Positions 22,846-52,537 of a DNA stretch of 64,000 nt are shown here, piece after piece. Each line of letters opens with the position of its first letter. Within the stretch, counting starts at the first letter, position 1. Both the position numbers and the translations under genes were made by a program. Source of the stretch: Polyangia bacterium (GTDB taxonomy: Bacteria; Myxococcota_A; Polyangia; Fen-1088); contig DASXOE010000092.1 in NCBI GenBank assembly GCA_036494575.1, positions 1,732 through 65,731 of the forward strand, read 5' to 3'. The notes beneath the pieces are model-generated. The model made no database searches. It had not been told where the DNA came from and saw only the letters and a program-made list of their open reading frames with translations.

Positions 22846-24786
22846 TTGCAGGGCGACCCGCGAGCTGACAGCAATCTTTCCAGTATTTTACAGACGACGT
22901 TGGACGCCATCTCTGATGGCATCCAGATCATCGACAGCGACTGGCGTTACGTCTATTTGAACCAGACGGCATGCCGGCACGGCAGACGCCATCGCGACGA
23001 GCTCGTAGGACGCTCGATGGTGGAGTGCTACCCGGGGATCGCACAGACGCCCCTGTTCGGGATCCTCACGGCATGCATGAAGGATCGAACGGCGCGCGTC
23101 CTCGACAACGAGTTCTCCTTCGCCGATGGAACGCGCGCGCTGTTCGAGCTGCGCGTGGAGCCGTGCCCGCAGGGCATCTTCATCCTCTCGGTCGACATCT
23201 CGGAGCGCAGGCGCCTCGAAGGCGAGCTTCGCCAGGCCCAGAAGATGGACGCCATCGGCCAGCTCGCGGGCAGCGTGGCCCATGACTTCAACAACATGCT
23301 CACCGCCATGCAGGGCTTCGCCGGGTTCGCGCTCGACGAGCTCGGCGCCTCCCACCCGGTGGCGGGGGACCTGCGCGAGGTGCTGGCCGCCGTCGATCGC
23401 GCGACCGCCCTCACGAAGCAGTTGCTGGCGTTCTCTCGCCACACGCCCTTCGCGGCGCGCGTGCTAGACGTCAACGCCCTCGTCGAGTCGCTCGATCGGT
23501 TGCTGCGGCGGCTCATCGGAGAGGACATCGAGCTCGAGACCAAGCTCGCGAGCGAGTCGTGGCGCGCGCTCATCGACTCGGGCGCCTTCGAGCAGCTGGT
23601 CGTCAACCTCGTGGTGAACGCCCGTGACGCGATGCCGGACGGCGGGTGTCTCACGATCGAGACGCAGAACGTTTCCATGGACGAGCCTCAGGCGCTGTCG
23701 CACGCCGAGGTCATCCCGGCCGGCGACTACATCGTGCTGGCGGTCACCGACGAGGGAATGGGGATGGAGCCGGCCGTCCTCGAGAAGATCTTCGATCCGT
23801 TCTTCACGACGAAGCGAGAGGGGAAGGGCACGGGGCTGGGATTGTCGACGTGCTACGGAATCGCGCGCCAAGCGGGCGGCTACATTTGGGTGTACAGCGA
23901 GCCGGGAAGCGGGTCGACCTTCAAGATCTATTTGCCGCGGGCCAATGGTCCCGTGAGCGAGAACGCCATAGCGGCCGCCGGTCGCGCCGTGGGCGGGCGC
24001 GAGACCATCCTGCTCGTCGAGGACGACCCCCAGGTGCGCGAGGTGACCGAGCGCATCCTCCAGCGCCTCGGGTACGTGGTCCTCGTGGCGGGGAGCCCCC
24101 AAGAAGCGATCGACATCGTCATCGCGCACGGCCGCGCGCCAGATCTCCTGCTCACCGACATGACGTTGCCCGGGGGCAGCGGTCACGAGCTGGCCCTGCG
24201 TCTGCGCGGCCGCCACCCCCAGCTTCGGGCGCTCTACATTTCGGGGTACACGGAGGCCTCGCTCGCGCGGCGGGGTGGGGTGCCGGTCGGAACGTCGATG
24301 CTCGCGAAGCCGTTCACGTCGGCCGCGCTCGCCCGCCGCGTGCGCCAGGCGCTCGACGACTCGGGGCCCTCGGTGCCCCTTCAACCGGTCACCGACCGCA
24401 GGCCGCTCGTGCTGATCGTGGACGACGAGGATACGCTCCGCCGTTCGCTCAAGCGCCAGTTGGTGGCCCTCGGCTGCGACGTCCTCGAGGCGTCCGAGGG
24501 CGCGAACGCCATCCAGGTGGCGTCCGACGCCGGCCCGTCCGTGATCTTCCTCGACCTGCACATGCCAGGGGTCGACGGTCACACGTTGCTGCGGCGCCTC
24601 CCCATCTCCGGCGTCCGCTCGACGATCGTCATCATGAGCGGCGGCGGCGACATCGACGACGTGATCTCGGCCCTGCGGAACGGCGCTTGCGACTACCTCA
24701 AGAAACCCTGGTCGGCCGAAGACCTCGCGTCCGCGCTGCGGCGCGCGCTCGAGGTCTACCGCGTCGCCGAGGGCTCGCCCGCCTGA
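22846..24786 (+). CDS. hybrid sensor histidine kinase (PAS-HisKA-HATPase_c-REC-REC)
   Basis: PAS-like N-terminus, H-box GSVAHDFNNMLTAM and G-boxes GTGLGLSTCYGIARQAGG. Two receiver domains are present (ILLVEDDP...LLLTDMTLPGGSG...KPF and LVLIVDDE...IFLDLHMPGVDG...KKPW). A TTG start is assumed, so the exact start is uncertain. Confidence 0.9.
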   Translation: MQGDPRADSNLSSILQTTLDAISDGIQIIDSDWRYVYLNQTACRHGRRHRDELVGRSMVECYPGIAQTPLFGILTACMKDRTARVLDNEFSFADGTRALFELRVEPCPQGIFILSVDISERRRLEGELRQAQKMDAIGQLAGSVAHDFNNMLTAMQGFAGFALDELGASHPVAGDLREVLAAVDRATALTKQLLAFSRHTPFAARVLDVNALVESLDRLLRRLIGEDIELETKLASESWRALIDSGAFEQLVVNLVVNARDAMPDGGCLTIETQNVSMDEPQALSHAEVIPAGDYIVLAVTDEGMGMEPAVLEKIFDPFFTTKREGKGTGLGLSTCYGIARQAGGYIWVYSEPGSGSTFKIYLPRANGPVSENAIAAAGRAVGGRETILLVEDDPQVREVTERILQRLGYVVLVAGSPQEAIDIVIAHGRAPDLLLTDMTLPGGSGHELALRLRGRHPQLRALYISGYTEASLARRGGVPVGTSMLAKPFTSAALARRVRQALDDSGPSVPLQPVTDRRPLVLIVDDEDTLRRSLKRQLVALGCDVLEASEGANAIQVASDAGPSVIFLDLHMPGVDGHTLLRRLPISGVRSTIVIMSGGGDIDDVISALRNGACDYLKKPWSAEDLASALRRALEVYRVAEGSPA

Positions 24787-24788
24787 GC

Positions 24789-26150
24789 TCAGTCCTTCGC
24801 GGAAGCTTGCGCCGACAGACGACGGCCGACGGTCCGATCGAGGGCGAGCCAGGCCCGATAGCACGCGAGCCGCAGGTCGACGTAGGTGCTGCGGCTGCGC
24901 AGGATGACGTCCTCGGCCGTCGTGAGCGCGACCACGTCCAGCTGACCGCCGGCGACCGCCGCCGCGAGCAGCTTCTCCTGGGCGGCGAGATCGGGCAGCA
25001 CCTGCGCCTCGTAGCGGCGCAGCGTCTCGCCGCGGAGCGCGATCTCGTCGCGCGCGCTCGTGAGATCGCGCCGGATGCCGCCCACGAGCTTGGCGAACGC
25101 CTCGCGCTCCTGATCGCGGGTGGCCTCGGCGATCTGGATGGGGCCGCCGTTGAGGTTGAGGATCGGCACCGTGAGCTCGAGGCCGGCCGAGAAATCGCTC
25201 GGGTGCACATCCGAGCCGTCCGAGCGGTAGCGCGGCATGGCCGTCAGGCGGAACCAGGGCCAGCGGCGCGCCATCTCGAGGCGCACGGTCTCCTCGCGCT
25301 GGTGGTAGCGGCGCTCCTCGGCCGCGAGCGCCGGGCGCGTCGCGAGCGTGGCCTCGACGAGGGCGTCGAGCGCTGGTGGCGGGCTCGTCTCGGCGCCCAG
25401 CCGCCCGGCGACGTCGCGCGCGGGCGTCGTCCCGAGGAGCAGCCCCAGATCGGCGGCCGCCCCGATCTGCTGCGTCGCCAGATCGTCGCGCTCGCGCTCG
25501 ACCTCGGCGACGGCCAGCTGCGCGAGGCCGAGGTCGAGCCTGGTCGACGCGCCACCCGCGAGGCGCTTGCGCACGAGGTCGAGGATGCGCCGGCGCGTCT
25601 CGAGATCCTTGTCGACGAGCGCGCCCTTCTCGCTGATGGCGAGGAGCGTGGCGTGAGCGGCGCGCACGGCGGTCGCGACCTGCCACTCGGCTTCGGCGAT
25701 GTCGGCTTCGACGGCCGCCGCGCCCGCGCGCGCAGCGGCGCGCCCCGCCGCGTAGATGCCGGGCTGGGGCGGCGCCCAGCCGAGCGTGATGGCCCAGCCG
25801 ACCTGCGAGGGCCAGTCTTCCAGATGAATCATGTCGAAGCCCACGGTGGGGTTGGCGAGCGCGCTCGCCGCCACGATCTGCCCCTCGGCGATGCCGCGCT
25901 GTTGGCGCGCGGCGCGCAGGTCGGGGTTCCCGCGCAGCGCGAGCTGGACGGCGGCGTCTTCCGTCAAACCCGCGGGTGGCGTGAGCGCGGGGCGGGAGCC
26001 GGGCCCCGGGGCCGCGCCCGCGGGCTCTCGCGCGAGGTCGTTCATGACGGCGCGCGCGTCGAGGGGCCGCGGCTGGTAGCAGCCCGCGGCGAGGGCGAGC
26101 CCGAGCAGCGTCGGGCCCGCCGGCGGACGCCCGCGCCCGGCGCGGCTCAT
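24789..26150 (-). CDS. TolC-family outer-membrane efflux lipoprotein
   Basis: The preferred ATG at 26150 overlaps the upstream stop (ATGA at 26147-26150). Lipobox LALAAGC. Has the OEP-type opening LTEDAAVQLALRGNPDLRAARQQRGIAEGQ and a two-fold coiled-coil repeat organisation. Confidence 0.85.
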   Translation of the reverse strand: MSRAGRGRPPAGPTLLGLALAAGCYQPRPLDARAVMNDLAREPAGAAPGPGSRPALTPPAGLTEDAAVQLALRGNPDLRAARQQRGIAEGQIVAASALANPTVGFDMIHLEDWPSQVGWAITLGWAPPQPGIYAAGRAAARAGAAAVEADIAEAEWQVATAVRAAHATLLAISEKGALVDKDLETRRRILDLVRKRLAGGASTRLDLGLAQLAVAEVERERDDLATQQIGAAADLGLLLGTTPARDVAGRLGAETSPPPALDALVEATLATRPALAAEERRYHQREETVRLEMARRWPWFRLTAMPRYRSDGSDVHPSDFSAGLELTVPILNLNGGPIQIAEATRDQEREAFAKLVGGIRRDLTSARDEIALRGETLRRYEAQVLPDLAAQEKLLAAAVAGGQLDVVALTTAEDVILRSRSTYVDLRLACYRAWLALDRTVGRRLSAQASAKD

Positions 26151-27157
26151 TTGGCCCCCGGCGCGGGCAGCGGCCAGCGCGTCCACAGAGGAGGCCCGGT
26201 GTTCGCGTCGAAGACGATGACGATCTCGCGGCCGTCCTTGGCCAGCGTCACGCCCTCGGGGTGAAGGCCCGACCATTGATGCACGAACGTCACCGCGCCC
26301 GTGGCGGGGGCGTACCAGTAGAGCGAGCCGCCGCCGTCCTTCTCGCGGCCCTTGGGCGAGTTCGCGAGCACGGCGAGCCGTCCGTCGGGCAGGCTCGTCA
26401 AATCGGCGATGCCCTCGGGGATGCCGCCCGCGTCGCCGCGCAGCGGGAGCTCCCAGTGCCGCGTCACCGCGCCGGGCGGCAAACGGCCCGCGCGCAGCGC
26501 CTCGACCGGCGAAGCGAGGCGCAGCACGACGGCGCCACCCGCCGCCGTGAGCGGCGACTTGAGGCCGACGAGTAGCGCGTCATCGCGGTACGTGATGGCC
26601 TCGATGTCGAGCCGGCCGTCCGGAGGCAGCCCCGCGATCGACAGCAGCGAGCCGCCGCCGTCGGCGGCGCGCGCCGTCGTGAGATCGGCGCGGCCGAGGA
26701 CGCGCAACGCGCGGCCCTCGAGGCCGAGCAGCAACAGCATGTCGCGCGGCGCGCGCTCGCGGCCGCGCTTGTTGAGCGAGTGCGAGGTCGTGAGGAAGAA
26801 GCGCCCGCCCGGGGCCGCGCAGATCGACTCGGCGTCATTGAGCGCGTCGACGCCGAGCAGCGGCACGGGCGTCTCGTCGAAGGCGCCCGCGACGCTCATG
26901 GCGAGCACCCAGGGCTGGTGATGGTCTCCAGCCTGGCCGGTGTCGTCGCTCACGACGAGGTATCGGTCGAGCGCGGTGGCCCACACGACCCCCGACGGCT
27001 CGAGCGTCGCCGAGCGCCGCGCCAGCCCCTCGGGCACGGCGATGCGCGTCGGCGCGGGCGGCGCGACGGGCGCGGCGGTCGCCGCGATCGGCGCCACGGC
27101 GCAGGCCGCGCACAGCCACGCGAGGAGCGGCGGCAGGGCCCGCTCAGAAACGAACAT
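26147..27157 (-). CDS. exported hypothetical protein, beta-propeller/phytase-like repeats suspected
   Basis: ATG at 27157 (MFVSERALPPLLAWLCAACAVAPIAATA signal). Recurrent blade-like motifs: LEPSGVVWATALDRYLVVSDD, EAITYRDDALLVGLKSPL, EGIADLTSLPDGRLAVLANSP and PEGVTLAKDGREIVIVFD. It overlaps the HlyD gene end by 14 nt. Confidence 0.65.
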   Translation of the reverse strand: MFVSERALPPLLAWLCAACAVAPIAATAAPVAPPAPTRIAVPEGLARRSATLEPSGVVWATALDRYLVVSDDTGQAGDHHQPWVLAMSVAGAFDETPVPLLGVDALNDAESICAAPGGRFFLTTSHSLNKRGRERAPRDMLLLLGLEGRALRVLGRADLTTARAADGGGSLLSIAGLPPDGRLDIEAITYRDDALLVGLKSPLTAAGGAVVLRLASPVEALRAGRLPPGAVTRHWELPLRGDAGGIPEGIADLTSLPDGRLAVLANSPKGREKDGGGSLYWYAPATGAVTFVHQWSGLHPEGVTLAKDGREIVIVFDANTGPPLWTRWPLPAPGAK

Positions 27158-28172
27158 GCACGGCCTCGCCGAGCACGAGGGGACGCGACGGCCAGCTCTC
27201 GATCTCGACACGCCGGCCCCAGGCGGGGACCTGCGGCGCGACGCGCGCCCGGATGGGCACCTCCTCGATCTCGGGCGCGATGGCGGCGACGCGCCCGTCC
27301 CAGCGCCCGCTGAAGAACGCCTGCCCGCGCAGCCGCACGGCGCGCCCCACCTCGACCTTGGCGATCTCCCGCTCCGGGACCCAGCACAGCACGCGGCCCG
27401 GCCGGCCGGTCGCGATGCGCACGAGCTCGGTCGCCGCGGGGACGACGTCGCCCGCGTGGTGCAGGATGAGCGAGACGACGCCGTCGGCGCGCGCGCGCAC
27501 CGTCGCTTCGTCGAGCGCGAGCTGCGCGAGCTTGACCGACTCCTCGCTCATGCGCGCGGCCTCGCGCAGCGGCGCCAGGCGGCGGTCGAGGTCGGAGGCG
27601 GCGGTCGCGCCGCCCTGGGTCCGGCCGAGGCCGGCGCGGCGCGCCTTCGTGGCCGAGTCGAGCACGGCGAGGCCGGCGTTCAGGCCGGCCTCCTTGAGCT
27701 TCTCCTGCTCGACGTCGCGCGCCTGGACGAGCTGCTCGCTCTCGAGCTTCTGGAGTCGCTCGAGCTGGCGGTGGACCTCGGCGAGCTGCGCGCGGTCGCG
27801 CGTCTGAGTCGACTGCAGACGCAGCACGAGCAGCTCGGCGCGCGCCGTCGCCGCGATGGCGACGACCTCCCCGGCGCCGAGCTCGGCCTGGGCGCGCGCG
27901 AGCGCGAGCCGGGACGTCTCGAGCTGAATCTGCAGCGCTTTAGTGTCCATGACGGCGACGACGTCGCCCGCCTTGACGGCCTGGCCGATCTCGACGGCGA
28001 CGCGGTCAACGCGCCCGGCCGCGAGTGTCGCCGCGGGCGCGTCGATGTCCTCCGTGTAGCCGCGCGCGCCGAGCGTCCCGGCGGCGCTGCCGCCGTGGGA
28101 GAGGACCCAGAACAAACCGCCCGAGGCGGCGATCGCCAGCGGGGCCGCGATGCGTGCGCGCGAGCGCGTCAT
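27144..28172 (-). CDS. HlyD-family periplasmic adaptor (membrane fusion protein)
   Basis: N-terminal TM anchor (IAAPLAIAASGGLFWVL) and a lipoyl-like hairpin (GRVDRVAVEIGQAVKAGDVVAVMD ... ADGVVSLILHHAGDVV). A long coiled coil lies between them, followed by a C-terminal beta-barrel segment. Confidence 0.85.
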   Translation of the reverse strand: MTRSRARIAAPLAIAASGGLFWVLSHGGSAAGTLGARGYTEDIDAPAATLAAGRVDRVAVEIGQAVKAGDVVAVMDTKALQIQLETSRLALARAQAELGAGEVVAIAATARAELLVLRLQSTQTRDRAQLAEVHRQLERLQKLESEQLVQARDVEQEKLKEAGLNAGLAVLDSATKARRAGLGRTQGGATAASDLDRRLAPLREAARMSEESVKLAQLALDEATVRARADGVVSLILHHAGDVVPAATELVRIATGRPGRVLCWVPEREIAKVEVGRAVRLRGQAFFSGRWDGRVAAIAPEIEEVPIRARVAPQVPAWGRRVEIESWPSRPLVLGEAVHVRF

Positions 28173-28196
28173 GGCGAGCAGCTCATGGCGAGCCTC

Positions 28197-28850
28197 TCAT
28201 GGCTCAAGCGACGAGTCCTGCATGAGAAGGGTGGCGCCCGTGAGGCCCGGCAGCGCGTTGAGCTCGCGCAGGAGCGCGGCCCCCGCCTTGGGATCCGCGA
28301 ACTGGACCTGGTACGAGTGCTCGTAGATGCCGTGCCCCGCCTCGCGGAGGTTCACGAGCAGGAAGCGCCGGCAGTGCTGTTCGAGCAGCTCGACGAAGGC
28401 CCGCTGCTCGGGCGAGCTCGCCGGCATGCGGATGCGCAGCACTGCGTCCGACTGGCGGTGCGTGCCGAACGACGTTACGTGCAGGAACCCGACGGCGGCG
28501 GCGAAGACGCCCGTGCCGATCACGGCGACGGCGTAGCTCTGCACGCCGCAGGCGACGCCCGAGGCCAGACCCGCGAAGACGAACATGAGATCGCGCGTGT
28601 CCTTGATCGTCGTCCGGAACCGCACGATCGTGAGGGCGCCCACGACGCCGAGCCCGCGCGCGACGTCGTCGCCGATGGCCAGCATCACTGACGCCGAGAT
28701 GATGCCCCCGAGCGCGAGGCTCTGGGTGAACCCGCGCAGGTAGGACAGGCCGGCGTGCGTCGCCGAGTACAACCAGGCGACGACCACCGAGAGCGCGAAT
28801 GCGAGCGAGAGCGAAGCGAGGGCCGTGTCCCAAGCGATGCGTTGTTCCAC
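28197..28850 (-). CDS. DUF4956-type integral membrane protein
   Basis: The GTG start at 28850 directly abuts the VTC stop codon (TAG at 28851-28853). Has about four hydrophobic segments, the hallmark GALTIVRFRTTIKDTRDLMFVF, and a ~80-aa soluble C-terminal domain. Confidence 0.75.
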   Translation of the reverse strand: MEQRIAWDTALASLSLAFALSVVVAWLYSATHAGLSYLRGFTQSLALGGIISASVMLAIGDDVARGLGVVGALTIVRFRTTIKDTRDLMFVFAGLASGVACGVQSYAVAVIGTGVFAAAVGFLHVTSFGTHRQSDAVLRIRMPASSPEQRAFVELLEQHCRRFLLVNLREAGHGIYEHSYQVQFADPKAGAALLRELNALPGLTGATLLMQDSSLEP

Positions 28851-29747
28851 CTAGTCGGTCTCCCCCGCGAGGTCCCAGGCCATGGCGTCCACCATGGGTT
28901 GATCGAGCAGCGTGCGCACGGCGGCGACGTACTTCGAGTAGCCCACGCGCCACATGTCGAGCCGGTTGACGAGGTGATTCATCCAGGCGGGCGCGACGCG
29001 CGGAAACTTGAGCTCAATCATCGTGTGGGCGCCATGTTGTCCGTGCTGGTCGTAGCCGTCGATGGGGATCCAGCCCTTGGGATCGCCGTGCAGCGACCAG
29101 CCGCGCGCGCGCTGGAAGCAGATCTCGCGGTCGAAGGTCAGGCGAACGTCCTCGCGCGGATCAGCCGTGCAGTACGACTCGCGATGCGCCCGCACGAGCA
29201 CACACGGCCGCGCGTCGGTGACCGTCTGGAGGTAGAGGAACGTCTCGAGGTGCCGCCGCTCGTCCCACGGCAGGCTGGCCGGCAAGGCGTCGTAGGTGCC
29301 CTCGAGGAGCGCGGCGGCGTCCACCATGGCGACGGCCGAGCGGGTCTTGACGGTGATGGCGTTGATCTTGCGCTTGGTCTCGAAGAAGGCCAGGTTGCCC
29401 GGCACCTCACCGTAGGCGCGCACGCGCAGCTTGTAGCGGTCGGCCGCCCCGTCGACGTGTGTCTGGTACGCGTCGAGGCGCGCCGTCTCGAGGTAGAGCG
29501 TCGTGTTGTACTGCTGGAGCAACCCGTCCCTGACGTTGAACGGGTCGACGACGAGGTACGGCCGCGCGTACTCGACGACCTCGCCGCAGATCTCGGTGGG
29601 CACCCAGTATTTGAGCTCGAACCGATCGAGCTCGCGCGCGTGGAAGTCGACGATCGCCCTCGAGAGGAGCTCGTCCTCCTCTCGGGTGGGCGCCGCGTCG
29701 GTCGCGCCGCGGGCGGCCGACCACACGAGGGCGAGCTTCGAGCTCAC
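28851..29747 (-). CDS. VTC-domain (polyphosphate-polymerase-type, CYTH-like triphosphate tunnel) protein
   Basis: The GTG at 29747 overlaps the upstream stop (GTGA at 29744-29747), with GGGAGG just upstream. No signal peptide. Tunnel-strand motifs present: RFELKYWV, TTLYLET, KLRVRAYG, FFETKRK, VKTRSAV, RESY, RLTFDREI and MIELKF. Confidence 0.75.
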   Translation of the reverse strand: MSSKLALVWSAARGATDAAPTREEDELLSRAIVDFHARELDRFELKYWVPTEICGEVVEYARPYLVVDPFNVRDGLLQQYNTTLYLETARLDAYQTHVDGAADRYKLRVRAYGEVPGNLAFFETKRKINAITVKTRSAVAMVDAAALLEGTYDALPASLPWDERRHLETFLYLQTVTDARPCVLVRAHRESYCTADPREDVRLTFDREICFQRARGWSLHGDPKGWIPIDGYDQHGQHGAHTMIELKFPRVAPAWMNHLVNRLDMWRVGYSKYVAAVRTLLDQPMVDAMAWDLAGETD

Positions 29748-31912
29748 GGGCCTCCCGTGTCGCTCGAGACATCCGAGCCGCGCCCCGGGTAGGGACGCGC
29801 CTGCTTGATGTAGAGCGTCGCCGGCTGGCCGGGCGCGGCCTCGTCGTCGAACTTGAACTCGCAGTCCATGGCGTAAAACCCGTTGTTGCCGGCCGCCGGC
29901 CCATAGGCGGCGGCGAAGCGCGTGTGGATCGCGTCGAGCGCGACACCCAGCTGGTGCGTCTGCGTCGTCGTGAGCACGGCGGTCGAGATGAGGTTGGAGT
30001 GCGCGATGAACGTGATGGGCTGGTTCGGCTCGTTGAAATAATAAATGAACTGATCGCTCGTGACGCCGGCGGGCGGATGCACGACCTCGGCGTCGCCGCC
30101 CGCCTGGACGTTGACGTAGAAGGCCGGGTCGAGCCCGCTGTCGTCGAAGGGGTTGGACGTGATGGCGACGCCGTTCGCCTCCTCGTCGGCGAAGTTGTGG
30201 TGAACGAGCAGCGCCATGCCCACGGCGTTGTGGTCGATGCCGTAGTAGCTGCGCTCCTCGAAGGTGCGGAAGAGCCACGCGCTCGCGTAGGCCTCGCGGA
30301 TGGCGTCGAGCACCGACGGCCATTTCGCCGGATCGCCCGTATGCGACTCGTAGCAGCCCGCGCACGGGAAGCCGTCCAGGTCCTCGCTGTTCGTGCTCGT
30401 GCGGAAACGCATGGTCGTGCCCGGGTAGTCCGCCGCGAGCTTCGCCATGAGGGTGGTCTGGAAGGCGGCGTCGATCGGGGCCGCGAGCATCGCCGTACGC
30501 AAGTCTGTGAGCTTCTGCTCCCGCACCGTGGCGTCGCTGCTGAACGCGGGGTCCGCGATGAGCGCCGTGACGCGGTCGTAAAAGCCGTTCTGCTTCATGA
30601 ACTGGTCGTAATAATAGATCGGAATTGCAAACGCTTTGAGGATGGGGACGTCCGGAGTCCGGACGAGGATCGAATATTGTGCCGCCTTGCCGCCAAAGGC
30701 CTGTACGGAGGTCTTGATGGCGTCACGAAGAGAACCGCCCGCCGGGGGCTCGGGCGTGACGTCCTCGACGTTCGTCAGCGCGGTCACGTCCAGGTTCACG
30801 AGCGGCAGCGTGATGGGGGCCGGCTTGTGCGCCGCCCAAAACGCCTCCGCGTCGGCCTCGGTGACCTCGCGCACGCTCCAGGCCGAAGCCCCGACCTGCA
30901 GCTCGACCAGCTTTCCCTCTAGGGCGCGGAGCTCCGGGTTCGTCACGGCGTTGCGCAGCCCCATGTTCGGCGTGTGGCGATTGGCCGACAGGACGTTGAC
31001 GTGCGACAGCGGCGTCTGGAACTCCTGCGTGATGAGACCCTGCACGACGGTGATGTCGTTGGGCGCCTCGTCGAGGACGGCGATGTCCTGAAAGGACAGC
31101 GTCGCCGTGTCGAGGTTGGCCGTCTGGACGAAGCGCAGGCGGCCGATCCCCGAGGCGAGCGTCAGCGGCTGGTAGTCGATCTTGGCGTAGAGGTCGTCCG
31201 TCGTCGCGATCTTGACGGCGGCCGGAAGGAGCTTTGCTTGCTGGCTCACGGCCTCGGACGTCGGGTGCACGACGAGGGCCGGGCCGAAGAACGCCTTGGC
31301 TTTGACGGCGTCGTAGAGCGTCTGGATCATGGCGGCCGAGGCCGTGTCGTAGGGGGCGAGCTCGAGCGCCCAGACGTCGGGCTCCTCGTAGTAGGTGACC
31401 GCGCCCAGGATGAACCGCCGGTCGGGTTTGTAGTACTCGGTGGCGTTGAAGTCGGCGAGGGCGCCGACGATGGGGAGCCCGTTCCCCGACAGGTGCGTCG
31501 ACGCGAACTGGTAGTGGACCTGGTAAAGGACGCTGTTCTGGAAGTAGATGGCGTTGCCGTCCGCCTGGTCGAGCACGACCTTGACGGAGCGGGCGCCCGG
31601 CAAGCTGACGTCGAGCGGCGCCGAGGCGAGCGCTTGGAAGTCAGAAGTGCAGCCGATCTCGCGCAAGAACTGGGTGGCCGAGGCGGCCTTCGCGCCCGCG
31701 TCGCCGGTGTCGCCGGCGTCGCCCGCAGCGTCGGCGTCGGCGTCATTTTGGCCGGCGTCCAAGACACCGCCCGCGTCGGCGGCGATCTGGCAGACACCCT
31801 CGACGACGACTGGCTTGGCGGGCGCCGTGGCCTTGCCGCCGCCGCAGCCGACCAGCGCGCCGAGCGCGAAGGCGAGCCGAGTGAGCCGGTCATGCCGAGG
31901 AATCGTCGTCAT
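29744..31912 (-). CDS. lipoprotein with PEP-utiliser swivel-His-like domain followed by PPDK_N (PEP/pyruvate-binding ATP-grasp) domain
   Basis: The ATG at 31912 overlaps the upstream stop (ATGA at 31909-31912). Lipobox LGALVGCGGG. The central DIAVLDEAPNDITVVQGLITQEFQTPLSHVNVLSANRHTPNMGL resembles the phosphohistidine mobile domain. The C-terminal FGGKAAQYSIL ... RFRTSTNSEDL ... MALLVHHNF ... ANGVAITSNP is PPDK_N-like. Confidence 0.75.
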   Translation of the reverse strand: MTTIPRHDRLTRLAFALGALVGCGGGKATAPAKPVVVEGVCQIAADAGGVLDAGQNDADADAAGDAGDTGDAGAKAASATQFLREIGCTSDFQALASAPLDVSLPGARSVKVVLDQADGNAIYFQNSVLYQVHYQFASTHLSGNGLPIVGALADFNATEYYKPDRRFILGAVTYYEEPDVWALELAPYDTASAAMIQTLYDAVKAKAFFGPALVVHPTSEAVSQQAKLLPAAVKIATTDDLYAKIDYQPLTLASGIGRLRFVQTANLDTATLSFQDIAVLDEAPNDITVVQGLITQEFQTPLSHVNVLSANRHTPNMGLRNAVTNPELRALEGKLVELQVGASAWSVREVTEADAEAFWAAHKPAPITLPLVNLDVTALTNVEDVTPEPPAGGSLRDAIKTSVQAFGGKAAQYSILVRTPDVPILKAFAIPIYYYDQFMKQNGFYDRVTALIADPAFSSDATVREQKLTDLRTAMLAAPIDAAFQTTLMAKLAADYPGTTMRFRTSTNSEDLDGFPCAGCYESHTGDPAKWPSVLDAIREAYASAWLFRTFEERSYYGIDHNAVGMALLVHHNFADEEANGVAITSNPFDDSGLDPAFYVNVQAGGDAEVVHPPAGVTSDQFIYYFNEPNQPITFIAHSNLISTAVLTTTQTHQLGVALDAIHTRFAAAYGPAAGNNGFYAMDCEFKFDDEAAPGQPATLYIKQARPYPGRGSDVSSDTGGP

Positions 31913-32925
31913 GGCGTCAGCGAGAAGCAGAAAAAGCCGCCGTACCCGCCACCCGCGCCCACCGTGATCGTTCCCTTGGGCGGGCCTCCCATCTCGACGA
32001 GGTTGACGCCCGGCGCGCAACCCGCCTCGTCGAGAGCAGACATCCAGCCGACGCCGCTCCCCTGGCGCGGCCACGAGTGGCCGACGCGCGGCTTCCCCTC
32101 CGTGCCGGTCGCGGCCGTCCAGTCTGCGCACGTCGCGGTCGCGCCGTAGAGCTGCCCCATGTTGTTCGTGCCCGTGAGGAAATCGTGGTTGTCGACCTGG
32201 CCCTTCGTCGGATCCGGCGCGTGGTTGGGAACGCCGTCCTCGTTGGGAAAGTCATTGGCGATCGCGGGATCGGCGTTGTGCGGGCGATCGAAGAGCAAGT
32301 CGGCCTTCGTGAGCGCGAACGTGCGCCCCAGCCGGTCGTACCAGGGCCCGTTGCCGACCCGATCGACGGCGTTGACCTGCTTGCCGTCGTCTCCTTTGAC
32401 CGCGCTCAGGAAGGCGCGCCATGGCTTGCCCCCGGCGCCCGGCATGCTCGTCTCGGCGATCGCCGCGCAGATCTTGTCGGCGCCGCGCAGGCCGGCGCCC
32501 GCGCCGGTTTCGCCGAAGCGGAGGTCGCCGCCGAAGCCGACGTCACTCTTCGAGAGCGCCTGGAGCGCCGCGAGGCTCGTGACGAAGAAGCTGAACTTCG
32601 CCGTCGGGATCGCCGTTTCCGCGCCGACGTCCGCGCGCGCGTCCACCGGATCGACCCCGCCACCCGCGCGCCCGCTCGCCGCGCCGGCCAGCCCGCTCGT
32701 TCCGCCGCCCGCGCCCGCGCCACCCGCCGCGCCGGCTGCGCCCATGGAGCCGGCGGCGCCTGCGGCGCCGCCCGTTCCGGCGGCCTGCATGCCCGCCGCA
32801 CCCGCCGCGCCTGCGCCTCCCGTGGCACCGCCGCCGCTGGGTCGAGAGGTCGCGCCTCCGACGCACGCGGCCGGTACGAAGAAGCCCATGCTGACCGAGA
32901 ACACGATGCTGAGATTCCGGCTCAT
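31909..32925 (-). CDS. DUF1554-like (lectin-fold-like) lipoprotein, paralog A
   Basis: ATG at 32925, lipobox-like VPAACVGG, and a Gly/Ala-rich linker. The core FSFFVTSLA...GGDLRFGE...GADKICAAIAETSMPGAGGKPWRAFLS...GNGPWYDRLGR...NEDGVPNH...GGGYGGFFCFSLTP is clearly homologous to the 36948-37946 product. Confidence 0.7.
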   Translation of the reverse strand: MSRNLSIVFSVSMGFFVPAACVGGATSRPSGGGATGGAGAAGAAGMQAAGTGGAAGAAGSMGAAGAAGGAGAGGGTSGLAGAASGRAGGGVDPVDARADVGAETAIPTAKFSFFVTSLAALQALSKSDVGFGGDLRFGETGAGAGLRGADKICAAIAETSMPGAGGKPWRAFLSAVKGDDGKQVNAVDRVGNGPWYDRLGRTFALTKADLLFDRPHNADPAIANDFPNEDGVPNHAPDPTKGQVDNHDFLTGTNNMGQLYGATATCADWTAATGTEGKPRVGHSWPRQGSGVGWMSALDEAGCAPGVNLVEMGGPPKGTITVGAGGGYGGFFCFSLTP

Positions 32926-32960: not shown

Positions 32961-34016
32961 CTACTTGCATTGCAGATCCGTCTGGCAGGTTTGCCCGGTC
33001 GGGCAGTCGCCATCCGCCGTACAGGACGTGAGCCCAGGTATCTGGACATTGCGGTCGAGGGACTCCGACAGCTCGAGCTCGACGCGCCCCGGGGCGATGA
33101 GGGTCGAGCCCACGGAGATGCGCGTGAACGTGAACGACGGGTAGCCCGCGTAGCCGAGGTTCAAGAGCTGTGTCACGAGCGCCGCCGAGATCGTCAATGA
33201 GCCCGAGTCGGCGGCGTCGCAGTCGATCTCGCCCTTGAGCCCGCCGTGGTGGCTGATGTCCACCCGCAGGTGAACGGTCGACGTGGCGCCCGCGCCCGCC
33301 GCCGCCCAGGTCAACGTGAAGCTCTGGTTCTTCTCGAGGGTGAAGACGTTGCCCGTGAGCGCGAGCGGCGCGATGCCCTTGGCGTGGGTCGAGAACGGCC
33401 CGTACGCGCCGCCCGTCGCCGAAACGGCGATGTCATCTCCTTCGGCAAACGGTGGGTAAGCCGGCGTCTGATCGGCCGGCGGCTGATACGTCTTGTTGAC
33501 GTACGTCAACGTGAGCGGGGGGGCGCCCGCCTGCTTCGCCACGCCAGTCAGGGTCACGGCGCCGACGTCTTGGTTGGTTCCGTAGCTCGCGCAGGTGTCG
33601 TCGGCCACGCAGACCCCTTGTCCGCACGACGTCGCGCAGAAAGGAACGTGCGGCTTGAAAAGCGCGCAGTCGCCGTCCTTGGCGGCCTGGACGAGCGGCA
33701 CCATGACCGGATCCGCGTGGTCCTTCACGCTGCCGATGATCGCCGTGTAGGCCGGGCTGCCGTTCAATGGTTCCTTGAGCGCGACGACGAACGTTCCGAC
33801 GACGGCGTTGCCGTCGCCGGACGTCGCGCCGTCGTTGGACGCCATCGCGCCAGCGGCCCCGTCCATTCCCGCGCCCGTCGCACCCGCGGCACCGGCGGCC
33901 GGGCCTGCTCCAGCGCCCCCAGAGCAGCCCGCGCCGACCGTCCACCCGGCGAAAAGGATGGCGGCGAGGATTCCCTTCCCGGCGCGGGGAAGAGCGTCAC
34001 AAAAGGCGGGTGACAT
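32961..34016 (-). CDS. hypothetical lipoprotein
   Basis: ATG at 34016. Lipobox TVGAGCSGG, a Gly/Ala linker, a ~270-aa beta-rich domain, and a Cys-rich tail CTADGDCPTGQTCQTDLQCK. Confidence 0.65.
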   Translation of the reverse strand: MSPAFCDALPRAGKGILAAILFAGWTVGAGCSGGAGAGPAAGAAGATGAGMDGAAGAMASNDGATSGDGNAVVGTFVVALKEPLNGSPAYTAIIGSVKDHADPVMVPLVQAAKDGDCALFKPHVPFCATSCGQGVCVADDTCASYGTNQDVGAVTLTGVAKQAGAPPLTLTYVNKTYQPPADQTPAYPPFAEGDDIAVSATGGAYGPFSTHAKGIAPLALTGNVFTLEKNQSFTLTWAAAGAGATSTVHLRVDISHHGGLKGEIDCDAADSGSLTISAALVTQLLNLGYAGYPSFTFTRISVGSTLIAPGRVELELSESLDRNVQIPGLTSCTADGDCPTGQTCQTDLQCK

Positions 34017-34148: not shown

Positions 34149-34667
34149 CTAGAGGTTGGCCTTGCCCTCGGTGGGGGTCGTCCGGACGAAGCTGCCGGTC
34201 CCGTCGGGCAGGCGCCCCCACGACTTGTCGGCGGGGACGTCGGTCCCGAAGATCGTCGAATCGATCTCGGTGCCGCTCCGGTCGAGGAGGTGAACCTCGT
34301 CTCCTTTTTTCGAGCTGAGCTTCCACGGCACGTGCACGCCGCCGTCGACGCCGCCGTCGGCCTGGTCGTCCGCGTAAATGACGAGGTAGCCGCCAGCGTC
34401 GATCGACGCGCCCCCCGGGAGCGCGAAGAGGTCGGCGAGGGCCTGGTCGCGCACGCGGTAGCCCGACAGGTCGACGGCCGCGCCCGTCAGATTCTTGAGC
34501 TCGACCCAGTCGGGATCGGAGACCGACGTTCCGTTCGGGAACGCCTCGTTGATGACGACGGCCTTGCCGGCCGTGCCGTTACCCGCGTCCTGCGTGCCCG
34601 AGGCGCTCGAGCAGCCCGCGCCGCAGCCCAAGGCGATCGTGATGACAGCCACCGCCAGCCTGCTCAT
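34149..34667 (-). CDS. lamin-tail-domain (LTD) lipoprotein
   Basis: ATG at 34667 with lipobox ALGCGAGC. VVINEAFPNGTSVSDPDWVELKNLTGAAVDLSGYRVRD ... GGYLVIYAD ... GDEVHLLD is the classic LTD pattern. Confidence 0.8.
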   Translation of the reverse strand: MSRLAVAVITIALGCGAGCSSASGTQDAGNGTAGKAVVINEAFPNGTSVSDPDWVELKNLTGAAVDLSGYRVRDQALADLFALPGGASIDAGGYLVIYADDQADGGVDGGVHVPWKLSSKKGDEVHLLDRSGTEIDSTIFGTDVPADKSWGRLPDGTGSFVRTTPTEGKANL

Positions 34668-34735: not shown

Positions 34736-35728
34736 TCAAGGCCACAGGGGCACCACCGTGCCGTCGCGGCGCACGACGGCCGCCGCGGCCGTGGCGCCGC
34801 GCGTGATTCGGAGCAGGGCGCCATCCGAATACCCGACGGCGTACGACATGCCGACGTCGGCGAGGAACAAGCGGCCGCCGTAGCGCGCGGCGAGCTCGCC
34901 CTTCGCGCGCGCACCTAGAACGTCGCCCGGAAAATCGAGCGCGCCGGGGTCGTGGCCGAACACGACGTGCTGAGCCGGCAGGGCCGTGAGGTTGTCCTCG
35001 ACGCGGGCCGTGGCGCCGGCGTCGCCCGCGTTTTGCCACCATGCATTGGCCTCGAGGATGCTGCCCATGCCGACGAGGAAGTCGTCGCCGTACCCGCTCG
35101 CGCCCTGGACGGCGTTGCGAAACTTCTTGCCGATCGAGGTGACGCTCAGCCCGTCGCTGTCACCCGAGTGGCAGAAGAACCAGTCGTCGATGAGCGCCGC
35201 GACGGGCAGGTTGCGCAGCCACGCGCCGTACGGCGCCGCGCCCGCGGCGACGGCGGCGGCGTCGAGCCCGGCGGTGGTCAGCTCGGCCTGGAACACGGCG
35301 GTCTTCGCGTCCGAAGGGCTGGCGAGGAACTCCGCCTCGTGATTCCCCAGCGTCACGATGACGCCGCCGCCCGCGGCGCGCGCCGCGGGCTCGAGCGCGA
35401 TGAGCAAGTCGATGATGGGCAATGCCGAGGAGCCCTTGTCGATCACGTCGCCCGTCACGACGAGGATCTTCGCGCCTCCTTTCCACGCCACGGGCGTTGT
35501 CGTCGTGATGAGCCCTGCGGCGGCGAGCACGTGGAAGGCGGCGTCGGGATCTCCGTGCGGATCCCCGAGGACGTCGATCTCCTGGGCGCCGTTCATCGTG
35601 ACGACGGCGGGGTGCGCCGACCAGTCGCGCGCGAAGCCGCCGCCGCCGGAGCCGCCGTGGCAGCCCGCGTGCATCGTCGCCAGCATCGTCGCGAGCGCGA
35701 GAGCCTGGATGGACCGAGGAACCTTCAT
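34736..35728 (-). CDS. calcineurin-like metallophosphoesterase lipoprotein
   Basis: ATG at 35728 with lipobox MHAGCHGG. Has the motifs DVLGDPHGD, VVTGDVIDKG, GNHE, FFCHSGD and VVFGHDPG. Confidence 0.85.
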   Translation of the reverse strand: MKVPRSIQALALATMLATMHAGCHGGSGGGGFARDWSAHPAVVTMNGAQEIDVLGDPHGDPDAAFHVLAAAGLITTTTPVAWKGGAKILVVTGDVIDKGSSALPIIDLLIALEPAARAAGGGVIVTLGNHEAEFLASPSDAKTAVFQAELTTAGLDAAAVAAGAAPYGAWLRNLPVAALIDDWFFCHSGDSDGLSVTSIGKKFRNAVQGASGYGDDFLVGMGSILEANAWWQNAGDAGATARVEDNLTALPAQHVVFGHDPGALDFPGDVLGARAKGELAARYGGRLFLADVGMSYAVGYSDGALLRITRGATAAAAVVRRDGTVVPLWP

Positions 35729-35807: not shown

Positions 35808-36926
35808 ATGCGAGCCATGCGCCGCGGTTGCATGGGGCCCGCGCTCGTCGTCCTCGTGGCCGCCGCACACGGCTGCGGCGCCGGCGTCGGCGCGAAGAGC
35901 GATGGGTCGCCCGTCGGCGCCGGAGACACTGCGGGCGACGCGGGCCCGGCCGAGAGTGGTCCCTCGACGCCCGACGCGAGCGTCGACACGTCGTCCGGAG
36001 GCGCCGGCGCGAGCGCCGATGCGCTGACCGGTGCTCCCGCGGACGCGGCGCCAGTTTCCGTCGACGCGCCGCCGGAGGCCTCCGCAGGCGAGGTCCCGAG
36101 CGCCTGCGCGCCGTGCACCGACTACGCGCCGGCGGCCGAGAGCGGCCGCGTGACGGCCGCCGCGTTGGACCAGCTCTCGGGCGTGGCTGCGAGCCGGCGC
36201 AACCCCGGCGTGCTGTTCGTGCACAACGATCACAGCACGCCGGAATTTTGGGCGCTGGGCCAGGACGGCGCGCTGAGGGCGTCATTCACGTACTCGGGCG
36301 CCACGGTGCGGGACGTCGAGGACATCGCCGTGGCGGCGTGTCCCTCTGGGACCTGCGTTTTCCTGGCCGACATTGGGGGCAACCTCGCGGCGCGCCCCGA
36401 CTACACGATCGCGCGCGTGCCGGAGCCCGTCGTCGCCCTCGGGGGCGCGCCGACGTCGGTCGCGCTCGCCGCCGACCGCCTCGTCTTCACGTATCCCGAC
36501 GCCGCCCAGCACAACGCCGAGTCGCTCATGATCGATCCGCGCAGCGGCACCCTGTACGTGATTGACAAGGTCGCCGCCGGTGCGCACAGCACGGTCTACC
36601 GACTGGCCGCGACGTTCGGCGGCGCCACCGTCATCGCGACGAAGGTCGTCGAGCTGCCGGTCCCGATGTCCGGCGACCAGCCGGCTACCGCGGCGGACGC
36701 CCATCCCTGCGGTACGGGCTTCATCTTGCGCACCTACAACACGGCGTACGAGTTCCGCATCGCCGCGACGGCGCCCTTCGAAGACGCCTTTCGCGCGCCG
36801 CCAGTCGCCGTCCCCGTCGCGCAAGAGCGACAAGGCGAGGGGATCGCCTACCAGCCCGACGGGCGCGGATTCTTCACGAACAGCGAAGGCGCGATGCAGC
36901 CCATCAATCACACCGGCTGTCGTTGA
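35808..36926 (+). CDS. hypothetical lipoprotein (propeller/phytase-like motifs suspected)
   Basis: Lipobox AAAHGCGAG and an Ala/Asp/Ser-rich linker. Also VFLADIGGN, NAESLMIDPRSGTLYVIDK and GEGIAYQPDGRGFFTNSEG. It is divergent from the phosphoesterase gene. Confidence 0.65.
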   Translation: MRAMRRGCMGPALVVLVAAAHGCGAGVGAKSDGSPVGAGDTAGDAGPAESGPSTPDASVDTSSGGAGASADALTGAPADAAPVSVDAPPEASAGEVPSACAPCTDYAPAAESGRVTAAALDQLSGVAASRRNPGVLFVHNDHSTPEFWALGQDGALRASFTYSGATVRDVEDIAVAACPSGTCVFLADIGGNLAARPDYTIARVPEPVVALGGAPTSVALAADRLVFTYPDAAQHNAESLMIDPRSGTLYVIDKVAAGAHSTVYRLAATFGGATVIATKVVELPVPMSGDQPATAADAHPCGTGFILRTYNTAYEFRIAATAPFEDAFRAPPVAVPVAQERQGEGIAYQPDGRGFFTNSEGAMQPINHTGCR

Positions 36927-36947: not shown

Positions 36948-37946
36948 TCAAGGCGCGTCGGCGAAGCAGTAGATCGCGCCGTACCCGCCGCCCGAGCCCA
37001 CGATCGGATTGTTGGGGTTGGAGCCGCCCGTCTCGACGATGTTGACCCCGGCGCCGCAGCCGCCCTCGTCTTGTCCCGAGATCCAGTTCACGCGGTCAGC
37101 CTCGATCCACGAGAACCCGATGCGCGGGCGGCCCGAGGTCGTCGCGGCGCTCGTCCAGCCCATGCACGTCGAAGTCGCGCCGAAGAGCCGACCCTGGTCA
37201 TTCGAGCCCGTGAGGACGTGATGATTGTCGACCGCGGGCATGCTCGGGTCGGGCCGGTGGTTCGGGAGGCCGTCCTCGTTCGGAAGGTCGTTGAGGATGA
37301 CCGGGTCGGCGCCCAGGGGTCGCGTGTTCAGAAGAGCGCTCTTGCTGAGCGCGACGACGCGTCCAAGGCGGTCGTACCAGGGACCGTTGCCGATGCGATC
37401 GACGGCGTCGACGGCAGGACCGCCCGCGCCGGCGGGCACGCTCAGGAACGCGTGCCAACCCTTGGCGCCGGCGCCCGGCATCGACGTCTCCGCGACCTCC
37501 GTGCAGATCTTGTCGGCGCCGCTGAGGCCGTTGGCCTGGCCGTAACGCAAATCGCCCCCGAAGCCGTTCTGACTCTTCGAGAGGCGGCGCATGGCGACGA
37601 GGCTGGTCTCGAAGAAGCTGAAATGCGCGAGCGCGGCGTCGGTGGCGGGCGCGCCATCCTTCGGGCCGTCCGTCGTCGGCCCGTTCGAATCCGCGCTCGC
37701 GTCCGGGACCGCGCCGGCCGCGCCGCTCGCTCCTCCTTGCCCGCCTCCGGCCGCGCCGGCGAGGCCCGCGCCGGCCGCTCCAGCCGCGCCGGTCGCGCCA
37801 CCCGCAGCTCCCGCGCTCCCGGACACCGTCGCTCCAGAGGCGCCCCCGACACCGGCGCTTCCCGGTCGCGGGTTGCTCCCGGAACAGGCCGCCGCCGCCA
37901 GAAGAAACGCAATCGAGGTCGTGGCCGCGGAATTGGCGTGCACCAT
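36948..37946 (-). CDS. DUF1554-like (lectin-fold-like) lipoprotein, paralog B
   Basis: ATG at 37946 with lipobox LLAAAACSGS. The core FSFFETSLV...GGDLRYGQ...GADKICTEVAETSMPGAGAKGWHAFLS...GNGPWYDRLGR...NEDGLPNH...GGGYGAIYCFADAP is collinear with 31909-32925. Confidence 0.7.
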   Translation of the reverse strand: MVHANSAATTSIAFLLAAAACSGSNPRPGSAGVGGASGATVSGSAGAAGGATGAAGAAGAGLAGAAGGGQGGASGAAGAVPDASADSNGPTTDGPKDGAPATDAALAHFSFFETSLVAMRRLSKSQNGFGGDLRYGQANGLSGADKICTEVAETSMPGAGAKGWHAFLSVPAGAGGPAVDAVDRIGNGPWYDRLGRVVALSKSALLNTRPLGADPVILNDLPNEDGLPNHRPDPSMPAVDNHHVLTGSNDQGRLFGATSTCMGWTSAATTSGRPRIGFSWIEADRVNWISGQDEGGCGAGVNIVETGGSNPNNPIVGSGGGYGAIYCFADAP

Positions 37947-45776: not shown

Positions 45777-45786
45777 GCCGCCGCCC

Positions 45787-46986: not shown

Positions 46987-47005
46987 CCGTTGTTTCTCGT
47001 ATCGC

Positions 47006-52421: not shown

Positions 52422-52537
52422 ACGCTCCGCAGGATGATCCGATGAGCCCGCACGCCCACGTCACGTTCAAGCTCGACGTTCTATGAGCCGACGGCGTCGC
52501 CCTCGGGCGGCGCTCGTGACATGATGAAGCGGCAGCG

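Follow-up and report, generated by a model that had tools for sequence, protein, structure and literature searches.

A VTC-DUF4956 gene pair linked to a HlyD-family adaptor and a TolC-like channel in Polyangia: a candidate envelope-spanning machine for polyphosphate export

Introduction

What is exported by a HlyD-family periplasmic adaptor and a TolC-like outer-membrane channel that are encoded together with a VTC-domain enzyme, a small DUF4956 membrane protein and no recognizable pump? This question is raised by a cluster of minus-strand genes in a 64,000-nucleotide (nt) stretch of contig DASXOE010000092.1 from a Polyangia bacterium (hereafter, the window), which an earlier note, made from the sequence alone, had proposed to encode a trans-envelope machine for polyphosphate synthesis and export. 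We believe that the unit could be an as yet undescribed envelope-spanning export machine for polyphosphate, in which export is coupled to polymerization, and we give this reading a probability of roughly 45%. The family assignments, gene linkage and catalytic residues invoked for the proposal stood up to profile searches and to comparison with 80 related loci, while the view of DUF4956 as a Vtc1-like subunit, the seven-gene extent of the unit and the label "repeat protein" for one of its products did not.

The gene cluster

The region has a G+C content of 66-77% and its closest relatives are from uncultured Polyangia, a class of the Myxococcota. A check of open reading frames (ORFs) and junctions reproduced the seven genes that had been described as tightly packed, and they follow one another in close succession on the minus strand at 24789-32925. 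All of their junctions were present as described: an ATGA overlap between the DUF1554-like and dikinase genes (31909-31912), a GTGA overlap between the dikinase and VTC genes (29744-29747), a TAG that abuts the GTG of the DUF4956 gene at 28851/28850, a spacing of 24 nt between the DUF4956 and HlyD genes (28173-28196), a 14-nt overlap between the HlyD and phytase-like genes (27144-27157) and an ATGA overlap between the phytase-like and OEP genes (26147-26150). The operon claim was correct in that the seven genes are joined, but too narrow in extent. Based on the gene layout, the transcription unit probably comprises ten genes, with three extra lipoprotein genes upstream that take it to 35728, because same-strand lipoprotein genes precede the DUF1554-like gene and the stop of the nearest (32961-34016) is only 35 nt from its start. 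The ten genes are as follows.

34736-35728, minus strand: calcineurin-like metallophosphoesterase lipoprotein, 330 amino acids (aa) (Pfam Metallophos, E 2.6e-9)
34149-34667, minus strand: lamin-tail-domain (LTD) lipoprotein, 172 aa (Pfam LTD, E 1.4e-18)
32961-34016, minus strand: lipoprotein without a Pfam family, 351 aa (lipobox)
31909-32925, minus strand: DUF1554-like lipoprotein, 338 aa (weak Pfam DUF1554)
29744-31912, minus strand: dikinase lipoprotein with a tentative alpha-glucan water dikinase (GWD)-like layout, 722 aa (Pfam PPDK_N)
28851-29747, minus strand: cytoplasmic VTC-domain triphosphate-tunnel enzyme, polyphosphate-polymerase-like, 298 aa (Pfam VTC)
28197-28850, minus strand: DUF4956 inner-membrane protein, 217 aa (Pfam DUF4956)
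27144-28172, minus strand: HlyD-family periplasmic adaptor with an N-terminal transmembrane (TM) anchor, 342 aa (Pfam HlyD_D23 and HlyD_3)
26147-27157, minus strand: exported phytase-like protein, a probable beta-propeller, 336 aa (Pfam Phytase-like)
24789-26150, minus strand: TolC-like outer-membrane factor, a lipoprotein of 453 aa (Pfam OEP)

The 3' end of the unit is bounded by a convergent gene for a hybrid PAS histidine kinase with two receiver domains (22846-24786, plus strand). A promoter and terminator scan of 24.3-38.9 kb returned sites no more commonly than in shuffled sequence and did not define the boundaries.

The VTC protein retains the residues of a polymerase

Pfam VTC (PF09359) matches the product of 28851-29747 with an E value of 9.4e-33 (114.1 bits, against a cut-off of 23) over profile positions 2-234 of 235, and no other Pfam family matches it at E<=0.01. 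The protein has no signal peptide, SPX domain or TM segment. A profile of the bacterial family matches the catalytic domain of yeast Vtc4 (3g3q) with an E value of 1.5e-11, and in the profile alignment, once the three-residue numbering offset in chain 5iiq is allowed for, Vtc4 residues K200, R264, R266, E426 and S457-K458 correspond to K46, R108, R110, E245 and S271-K272 of the window protein. As judged by sequence alignment, the tunnel residues expected of a Vtc4-type enzyme are retained, since all of the catalytic equivalents that we checked are invariant in family alignments of 12 and 17 members. The larger of these alignments (A1) was too diverse for the locus scan described below, for which the 12-sequence subset was used. 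The triple substitution R264A/R266A/E426N has been used to inactivate yeast VTC (PMC9911596). The bacterial protein is therefore expected to have an intact polymerase-type active site, and we infer that it may polymerize polyphosphate.

DUF4956, a membrane protein that is probably MgtC-like

The DUF4956 assignment was likewise upheld (Pfam PF16316, E 5.9e-11, 42.8 bits against a cut-off of 30.6). In this large family, for which there are 6244 representatives at the level of 50%-identity clusters, nearly all proteins are 215-250 aa in length, and conservation is higher than among the VTC proteins, with 91% versus about 80% identity in the closest relatives. An AlphaFold2 model of the window protein (pLDDT 76) has five helices followed by a C-terminal beta-alpha-beta-beta-alpha-beta domain, for which Foldseek returned ACT domains at E values of about 3e-3 to 1e-2, including the C-terminal domain of MgtC (2lqj). 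Alignment by hhalign with the window's own MgtC (38045-38770) gave a probability of 64% and an E value of 6e-5 over 142 collinear columns, and Pfam MgtC (PF02308) itself matches weakly (E 0.038, 14.8 bits, below the cut-off of 31.4). Many DUF4956 proteins bear the name of the MgtC-family protein YhiD in the COG-based annotation of JGI, and a streptococcal homolog has been described independently as an MgtC TM domain with an intracellular ACT domain (PMC12345266). A PDB sequence search with the DUF4956 profile returned nothing significant.

Based on these comparisons and on the model, DUF4956 resembles MgtC in having five predicted helices and a predicted cytoplasmic ACT-like domain, and the expectation that it would be a channel subunit of the Vtc1 type was not borne out. 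As modeled, it would share with the MgtC/YhiD/SapB family the succession of about five TM helices and a cytoplasmic ACT-like domain, but it differs in falling below the Pfam MgtC threshold, in being paired with VTC and in having its own invariant loop, RFRxxxKDxRD. In the window protein this basic loop is R77-F78-R79-x3-K83-x2-R86-D87. The loop charges fit an N-terminus outside and a C-terminus inside, and together with the model they place both this loop and the ACT-like domain on the cytoplasmic side.

The VTC-DUF4956-adaptor linkage recurs in five phyla

The neighborhoods of three VTC homologs, with 69, 49 and 37% identity to the window protein, gave a first indication of how far the arrangement is kept: two of them retain the PPDK_N, VTC, DUF4956, adaptor, phytase-like and OEP genes, and the third only the lipoproteins and VTC. 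A scan with a VTC profile built from the 12-sequence alignment, taking one genome per species, returned 80 loci, which were annotated with profiles built from the ten proteins of the window. The linkage of VTC, DUF4956 and HlyD, often with OEP, is kept in most of the 80, and these come from five phyla, as a conserved machine would lead one to expect. As judged by record title, the loci belong to Myxococcota (44), Verrucomicrobiota (14), Planctomycetota (9), Kiritimatiellota (3), Lentisphaerota (2) and Acidobacteriota (2), with a few in unplaced bins.

DUF4956 directly follows VTC in 73 of the 80 loci, and a HlyD-type adaptor directly follows DUF4956 in 62. The adaptor is part of the cluster in at least 67 loci when four fusions and one rearranged locus (L056, in which the adaptor and OEP genes precede VTC) are added to these 62. 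An OEP gene is in or near the cluster in 49 loci, and a few loci have VTC without partners. The inferred gaps are short, with medians of 26 nt between VTC and DUF4956 and about 42 nt between DUF4956 and the adaptor. The recurrence across phyla places the arrangement far beyond chance. Neither the 80 loci nor the top 150 DUF4956 representatives include a fusion of VTC to DUF4956 or of DUF4956 to HlyD. A reverse scan from the HlyD adaptor in metagenome contigs, which serves only as a limited test of consistency, gave at least 11 loci with a pattern that is generic; among the matches listed, all three strong ones have VTC-DUF4956 upstream, whereas the weak, generic HlyD matches do not.

Adaptor, propeller and channel are encoded without a pump

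The HlyD assignment is supported by two Pfam families, HlyD_D23 (E 3.1e-13, 49.9 bits, cut-off 30) and HlyD_3 (E 2e-12, 48.2 bits, cut-off 22.2). The protein has a short, Arg-rich cytoplasmic tail, one N-terminal TM helix and HlyD barrel-sandwich domains. Its NCBIfam matches, all below cut-off, are to RND_mfp (1.6e-21), EmrA (1e-17) and DevB (4e-16), and it resembles the adaptors of ABC- and MFS-type systems. The TolC-like assignment is supported as well, as Pfam OEP matches in two repeats with an E value of 2.8e-26 (92.9 bits against a cut-off of 22). This protein has the lipobox LAAGC, and its NCBIfam matches to the TolC and NodT subfamilies are below their cut-offs.

The protein encoded between adaptor and channel (26147-27157) had been described as an exported repeat protein. 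It is exported, based on a Sec-type signal peptide, but the repeat label gives way to a match to Pfam Phytase-like (PF13449; E 2.7e-7, 31.2 bits against a gathering score of 27.6); a PDB sequence search with the phytase-like profile gave no significant match. In four loci the adaptor and a phytase-like domain C-terminal to it are in one ORF (L036:5942-8716, L039:10731-13544, L042:10767-13562 and L062:11522-13600), the carriers being Sorangium sp. So ce1078 and So ce1014 (L039 and L042) and two metagenome-assembled genomes (MAGs) of Myxococcota. A probable fifth fusion is the 689-aa gene of Nannocystis radixulma that lies between DUF4956 and OEP (L097:22-2091). Based on these fusions, we argue that adaptor and propeller belong to one assembly, the propeller being a component in the periplasm.

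As had been claimed, there is no ABC, RND or MFS gene in the unit: Pfam finds none in 22.8-38.8 kb of the window. Clustering of the unassigned ORFs in the flanks of the 80 loci returned no recurrent ABC, RND or MFS family, and no further widely shared family beyond the genes of the cluster. Similarly, in the loci of the PVC phyla (Planctomycetota, Verrucomicrobiota and relatives) no transporter domains were found in the genes after HlyD.

Exported lipoproteins and the dikinase

Lipoboxes are visible on the DUF1554-like, PPDK_N and OEP proteins and on the product of 32961-34016. In the dikinase lipoprotein, as it had been named, PPDK_N matches with an E value of 5.4e-19 (69.1 bits against a cut-off of 27), but only over residues 405-708 of 722, and all 18 of the aligned homologs share this match. 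Upstream of this ATP-grasp domain, H304 (in TPLSHVNVL) is invariant in the family, and at this site there are weak matches below cut-off to GWD1_pHisD in eight of the 18 members (best E 0.0036) and to PEP-utilizers in four (best E 0.047). Because an invariant histidine and weak but recurrent phospho-histidine-domain matches precede the ATP-grasp domain, we tentatively assign the protein the layout of GWD, with a candidate phospho-histidine domain. It would thus share with GWD and the PEP-utilizing dikinases a C-terminal PPDK_N domain and, N-terminal to it, a candidate phospho-histidine domain in which a His is invariant, and it differs from them in being a predicted extracytoplasmic lipoprotein with an N-terminal 280 residues of no known fold. 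The AlphaFold2 model of the 722-aa protein was poor (pLDDT 57) and was used for no fold search or claim. The family has more than 1900 matches, with 65-80% identity across myxobacteria, and most homologs retain the lipobox.

The DUF1554-like protein has the lipobox expected of a lipoprotein, while its DUF1554 match is weak (E 1e-3, 19.3 bits, below the cut-off of 27.5, with 37 residues aligned). Its homologs accompany PPDK_N in most Myxococcota loci. The lipoprotein encoded at 32961-34016 has no Pfam match, and members of its family adjoin PPDK_N in many loci, including two without a nearby VTC gene (L095 and L096). These three proteins, the unknown lipoprotein, the DUF1554-like protein and the PPDK_N protein, form a recurrent trio that is found without VTC within 10 kb in Cystobacter fuscus and in Sorangium cellulosum So ce26 (L095:7700-12046, L096:7836-12061), and we therefore view the operon in the window as the union of two modules.

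LTD genes are present in 36 of the 80 loci, and the closest loci (L001 and L004-L007) have the Metallophos lipoprotein gene at the equivalent place. VTC is preceded in the PVC loci by the gene for a large CotH kinase that is secreted and contains LTD domains, to which a carbohydrate-binding module (CBM) is added in one case. Genes of the phosphate-regulator-like family PhoU_div lie near the cluster in L001 (20363-20885) and in the N. radixulma locus L097, in which a CotH gene is also near the DUF4956-adaptor-OEP genes and the dikinase trio (coordinates listed for the PhoU_div and CotH observation in L097, 18312-20054 and 20322-21959).

A possible mechanism of polymerization-coupled export

In the machine that we propose, the VTC protein would polymerize polyphosphate from NTP at the cytoplasmic face of the inner membrane, and an oligomer of DUF4956 would take the chain at its invariant basic cytoplasmic loop and pass the polymer through the membrane. 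The HlyD adaptor, with the phytase-like propeller as its periplasmic partner or fusion domain, would form the bridge to the TolC-like channel, through which the polymer would reach the surface. The driving force of extrusion would be polymerization itself, a principle shared with the eukaryotic VTC complex and with the synthase-dependent secretion of exopolysaccharides. Once it has left the cytoplasm, the polymer may be trimmed, bound or used by the GWD-like dikinase, the metallophosphoesterase and the LTD protein, and elsewhere by CotH kinases. In this scheme the conduit role of DUF4956, the contacts among the parts and polyphosphate as the cargo are what we infer from the arrangement of the genes.

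Several lines of evidence lead us to favor this export machine. The active site of the VTC protein is, as judged by sequence, an intact one of the polymerase type. The genes keep a nearly obligatory order in five phyla, without a further partner for the inner membrane, and several lineages have the adaptor and the propeller in one protein. An adaptor and a channel have been added in double-membraned bacteria, whereas single-membraned Gram-positives have cotH-VTC-DUF4956 with neither reported (PMC7112168, PMC12345266). The predicted cytoplasmic loop and ACT-like domain of DUF4956 lie where the exit of the VTC tunnel would be expected to dock, and in yeast VTC a positively charged path leads from the tunnel exit to the channel (PMC9911596). 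Also consistent with the proposal is the fact that the neighbors handle phosphate, as indicated by the Metallophos, Phytase-like, PPDK_N, CotH and PhoU_div families.

A number of observations weigh against it. Two sets of loci (L003/L032, from a Myxococcaceae MAG, and L033) keep the LTD, unknown lipoprotein, DUF1554-like, PPDK_N and VTC genes, and DUF4956, adaptor and OEP genes were not found near their VTC genes, so that VTC can remain associated with the dikinase when the export genes are not nearby. Loci of the Sorangium So ce56 type have no more of the cluster than VTC-DUF4956, with no informative neighbors in the So ce56 locus, and no OEP gene was found adjoining seven of the nine Planctomycetota clusters. 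In the active site, the bacterial family has an invariant Glu (E44, in the motif RFELK) where Vtc4 has Thr, which we take to be closer to the ExExK motif of the hydrolytic tunnel enzymes. MgtC is known as a regulator, and we know of no MgtC-family protein that is a polymer channel. The DUF4956 protein is unrelated to Vtc1/DUF202, and deletion of the VTC gene of Streptococcus intermedius had no reported phenotype (PMC12345266). Lastly, the literature that we searched holds no functional study of bacterial VTC or DUF4956 apart from the papers on pel loci, the S. intermedius deletions and the description of a Clostridium perfringens locus.

Alternative explanations

The least unlikely of the rival explanations, and still a decidedly unlikely one, is that the locus serves cation or metal-phosphate homeostasis, in which case the MgtC-like DUF4956 protein, the adaptor and the OEP protein would expel cations or metal-phosphate and the polyphosphate of VTC would be a cytoplasmic buffer, made or cleaved but never exported. 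The MgtC-like features of DUF4956 fit such a role, as do the PhoU_div genes near the cluster in L001 and L097, the best named NCBIfam match of the OEP protein, to the divalent-metal exporter subunit IhpA (E 5e-16, far below cut-off), and the silence of the VTC deletion, but not of the DUF4956 deletion, in S. intermedius. However, homeostasis leaves unexplained the strict adjacency of VTC and DUF4956 (73 of 80 loci), the recurrent exported kinases and dikinases and the fusion of adaptor and phytase-like domain, and no MgtC-family protein is known to us to transport with an adaptor. We also think it improbable that the VTC protein is a tunnel-fold hydrolase or signaling enzyme, either a triphosphatase or an NTPase, that gates or energizes a DUF4956-based exporter with another cargo, for instance a polymer of the surface or a small metabolite. 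In favor of this, hydrolases predominate among the known bacterial triphosphate-tunnel enzymes, the ExExK motif is partly restored by E44, and the family is without the SPX and TM domains of Vtc4; against this, the Pfam VTC match runs from end to end with no competing family, the residues that Vtc4 needs for polymerization are all invariant, and tunnel enzymes that power transport are not known to us.

Whether the HlyD and OEP proteins belong to the pathway at all may also be asked, since many PVC loci are without an OEP gene and some VTC-DUF4956 pairs have no adaptor. Polyphosphate would then go only to the periplasm or membrane surface through VTC-DUF4956, with HlyD and OEP carrying out an unrelated export function from a shared operon. 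This is very improbable, we believe, since in five phyla the adaptor gene sits right after that of DUF4956, separated by a short gap, and no alternative partner in the inner membrane is encoded, and since the strong adaptor homologs among the matches listed occur only beside DUF4956. Outer-membrane factors that are unlinked to their partners are common, E. coli TolC being one example. That the seven genes came together by chance, or reflect faulty annotation, has a negligible probability: although high G+C yields many spurious ORFs, all seven have significant family matches or conserved homologs and their order recurs in dozens of genomes, which refutes it.

Comparison with known systems

The proposed export machine shares with the eukaryotic VTC complex (Vtc4/Vtc3/Vtc1, of vacuoles and acidocalcisomes) the Pfam VTC fold, the catalytic Lys, Arg and Glu residues, and the pairing of a cytoplasmic polymerase with a dedicated membrane partner through which synthesis and passage are proposed to be coupled. 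The eukaryotic enzyme differs in having an SPX sensor and a fused TM domain, neither of which is on the window enzyme, and three-helix Vtc1/DUF202 subunits where the window has the MgtC-like DUF4956; no DUF202 was among the Pfam matches in the cluster. The proposed destination differs as well, being the cell exterior across two membranes, by way of adaptor and TolC-like channel.

With tripartite efflux and type I secretion systems, the cluster has in common a TM-anchored HlyD-family adaptor and a two-repeat OEP lipoprotein that are encoded together. Those systems have an ABC, RND, MFS or AaeB-type pump, of which none was found here or in the homologous loci, and the sole inner-membrane protein in the cluster besides the anchored adaptor is the 217-aa DUF4956 protein. 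Energy would be drawn from polymerization rather than from ATP hydrolysis or proton flow, and in some lineages the adaptor is fused to a phytase-like domain. The synthase-dependent systems (cellulose Bcs, alginate, Pel and PNAG) share the concept of polymerase-driven extrusion through an envelope-spanning path; they have a TPR-porin, while here an inorganic polymer is proposed, with HlyD and a TolC-like exit and without a glycosyltransferase.

A counterpart with published data is the Gram-positive VTC-DUF4956-CotH module that is physically attached to pel operons (Whitfield 2020, PMC7112168), and a C. perfringens locus with cotH-VTC-DUF4956 has also been described (PMC2879425). The S. intermedius module (SIR_1592-1594, PMC12345266) resembles the window in having the VTC-DUF4956 pair beside an exported kinase-type enzyme, but it lacks both adaptor and outer-membrane channel, with CotH as the kinase instead of a GWD-like dikinase. 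The sole genetic data that we found for a homologous module come from S. intermedius: in artificial sputum medium, aggregation fell by more than 50% when the DUF4956 or CotH gene was deleted, and the deletions also altered the levels of Pel (PMC12345266). The three-gene cotH-VTC-DUF4956 synteny was stated to be absent outside pel loci (PMC12345266); CotH-VTC-DUF4956, in some cases followed by HlyD, is present in our Planctomycetota and Verrucomicrobiota loci, where no further flank family was recurrent, pel genes not having been specifically searched for. A different setting is seen in Bacteroides thetaiotaomicron, in which the DUF4956 gene is listed beside a DUF2490 gene (BT3498-BT3499) and is down-regulated under iron depletion (PMC10434189).

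All known polyphosphate synthesis in bacteria is attributed to PPK1 and PPK2, and VTC is treated as eukaryotic (PMC10657179). The literature that we searched has no mention of a link of VTC or DUF4956 to HlyD or TolC, and relative to it the proposed machine is new, while building on two established types, the tripartite exporter and the VTC synthase-translocase.

Possible significance

Bacteria such as Mycobacterium tuberculosis place polyphosphate on their surface or in the medium, and the extracellular polyphosphate of M. tuberculosis blunts killing by phagocytes (PMC10653871, PMC12772234). In our literature search we found no dedicated bacterial route for its export. If the proposed machine is real, its VTC protein would be a third bacterial polyphosphate synthase and the whole would be the first polymerase-driven tripartite exporter, that is, a new class of inner-membrane partner for HlyD/TolC-type ducts. 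It would also give a function to DUF4956, with its more than 6000 sequence clusters, and to cotH-VTC-DUF4956 at the pel biofilm loci of streptococci and clostridia. Because Sorangium So ce1078, Sorangium So ce1014 and N. radixulma are carriers in culture, the idea is directly testable.

One extension, unlikely in our view, of the export proposal is that VTC-DUF4956, with the adaptor and channel where present, exports phosphoanhydride energy, polyphosphate acting as the phosphoryl donor for extracytoplasmic kinases. ATP is not expected outside the cytoplasm, and such a donor could explain how CotH and the lipoprotein dikinases, as exported kinases of the ATP type, are supplied there. CotH, in Firmicutes, Planctomycetota and Verrucomicrobiota, and the GWD-like lipoprotein dikinase, in Myxococcota, are mutually unrelated and would have been recruited independently, and would act on polymers of the surface or the environment. 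Such a role fits with the linkage to pel loci, with the presence of CBM and LTD domains in the kinases, and with a way of life in which these organisms degrade polysaccharides.

Neighboring genes

Several other genes of the window were considered for a relationship to the cluster, among them a separate, complete RND tripartite system (41281-47283, minus strand) that contains the only RND pump of the window.

41281-42828, minus strand: OEP protein of the RND system
42579-45776, minus strand: AcrB-family pump
45787-47283, minus strand: membrane-fusion protein

We rejected the idea that the HlyD and OEP proteins of the cluster serve this pump, as the RND system has its own adaptor and OEP protein and the pump is not conserved near the cluster. 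An anti-phage defense role was also rejected, based on the fact that PADLOC defense-system models gave no match for any of the seven proteins.

The multi-heme MtrC/c554-like cytochrome (52520-53998, plus strand) and the GH3 glycosidase with an Fn3-like domain (18172-20754, plus strand) have no visible link to the cluster. The hybrid histidine kinase that bounds the 3' end is a possible regulator, and elsewhere only one moderate match to it was beside the cluster (L024). Upstream, a second DUF1554-like lipoprotein, a paralog of that in the unit, is encoded at 36948-37946 (minus strand), and about 100 nt upstream of it is the canonical MgtC gene (38045-38770, minus strand; Pfam E 4e-36); no MgtC neighbor was found in the regions that flank the 80 related loci. 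On the opposite strand, and immediately upstream of the cluster, lies a gene for a lipoprotein without a Pfam match (35808-36926, plus strand), homologs of which are beside the VTC cluster in L008, L036, L039 and L042, and its product may be a further accessory component.

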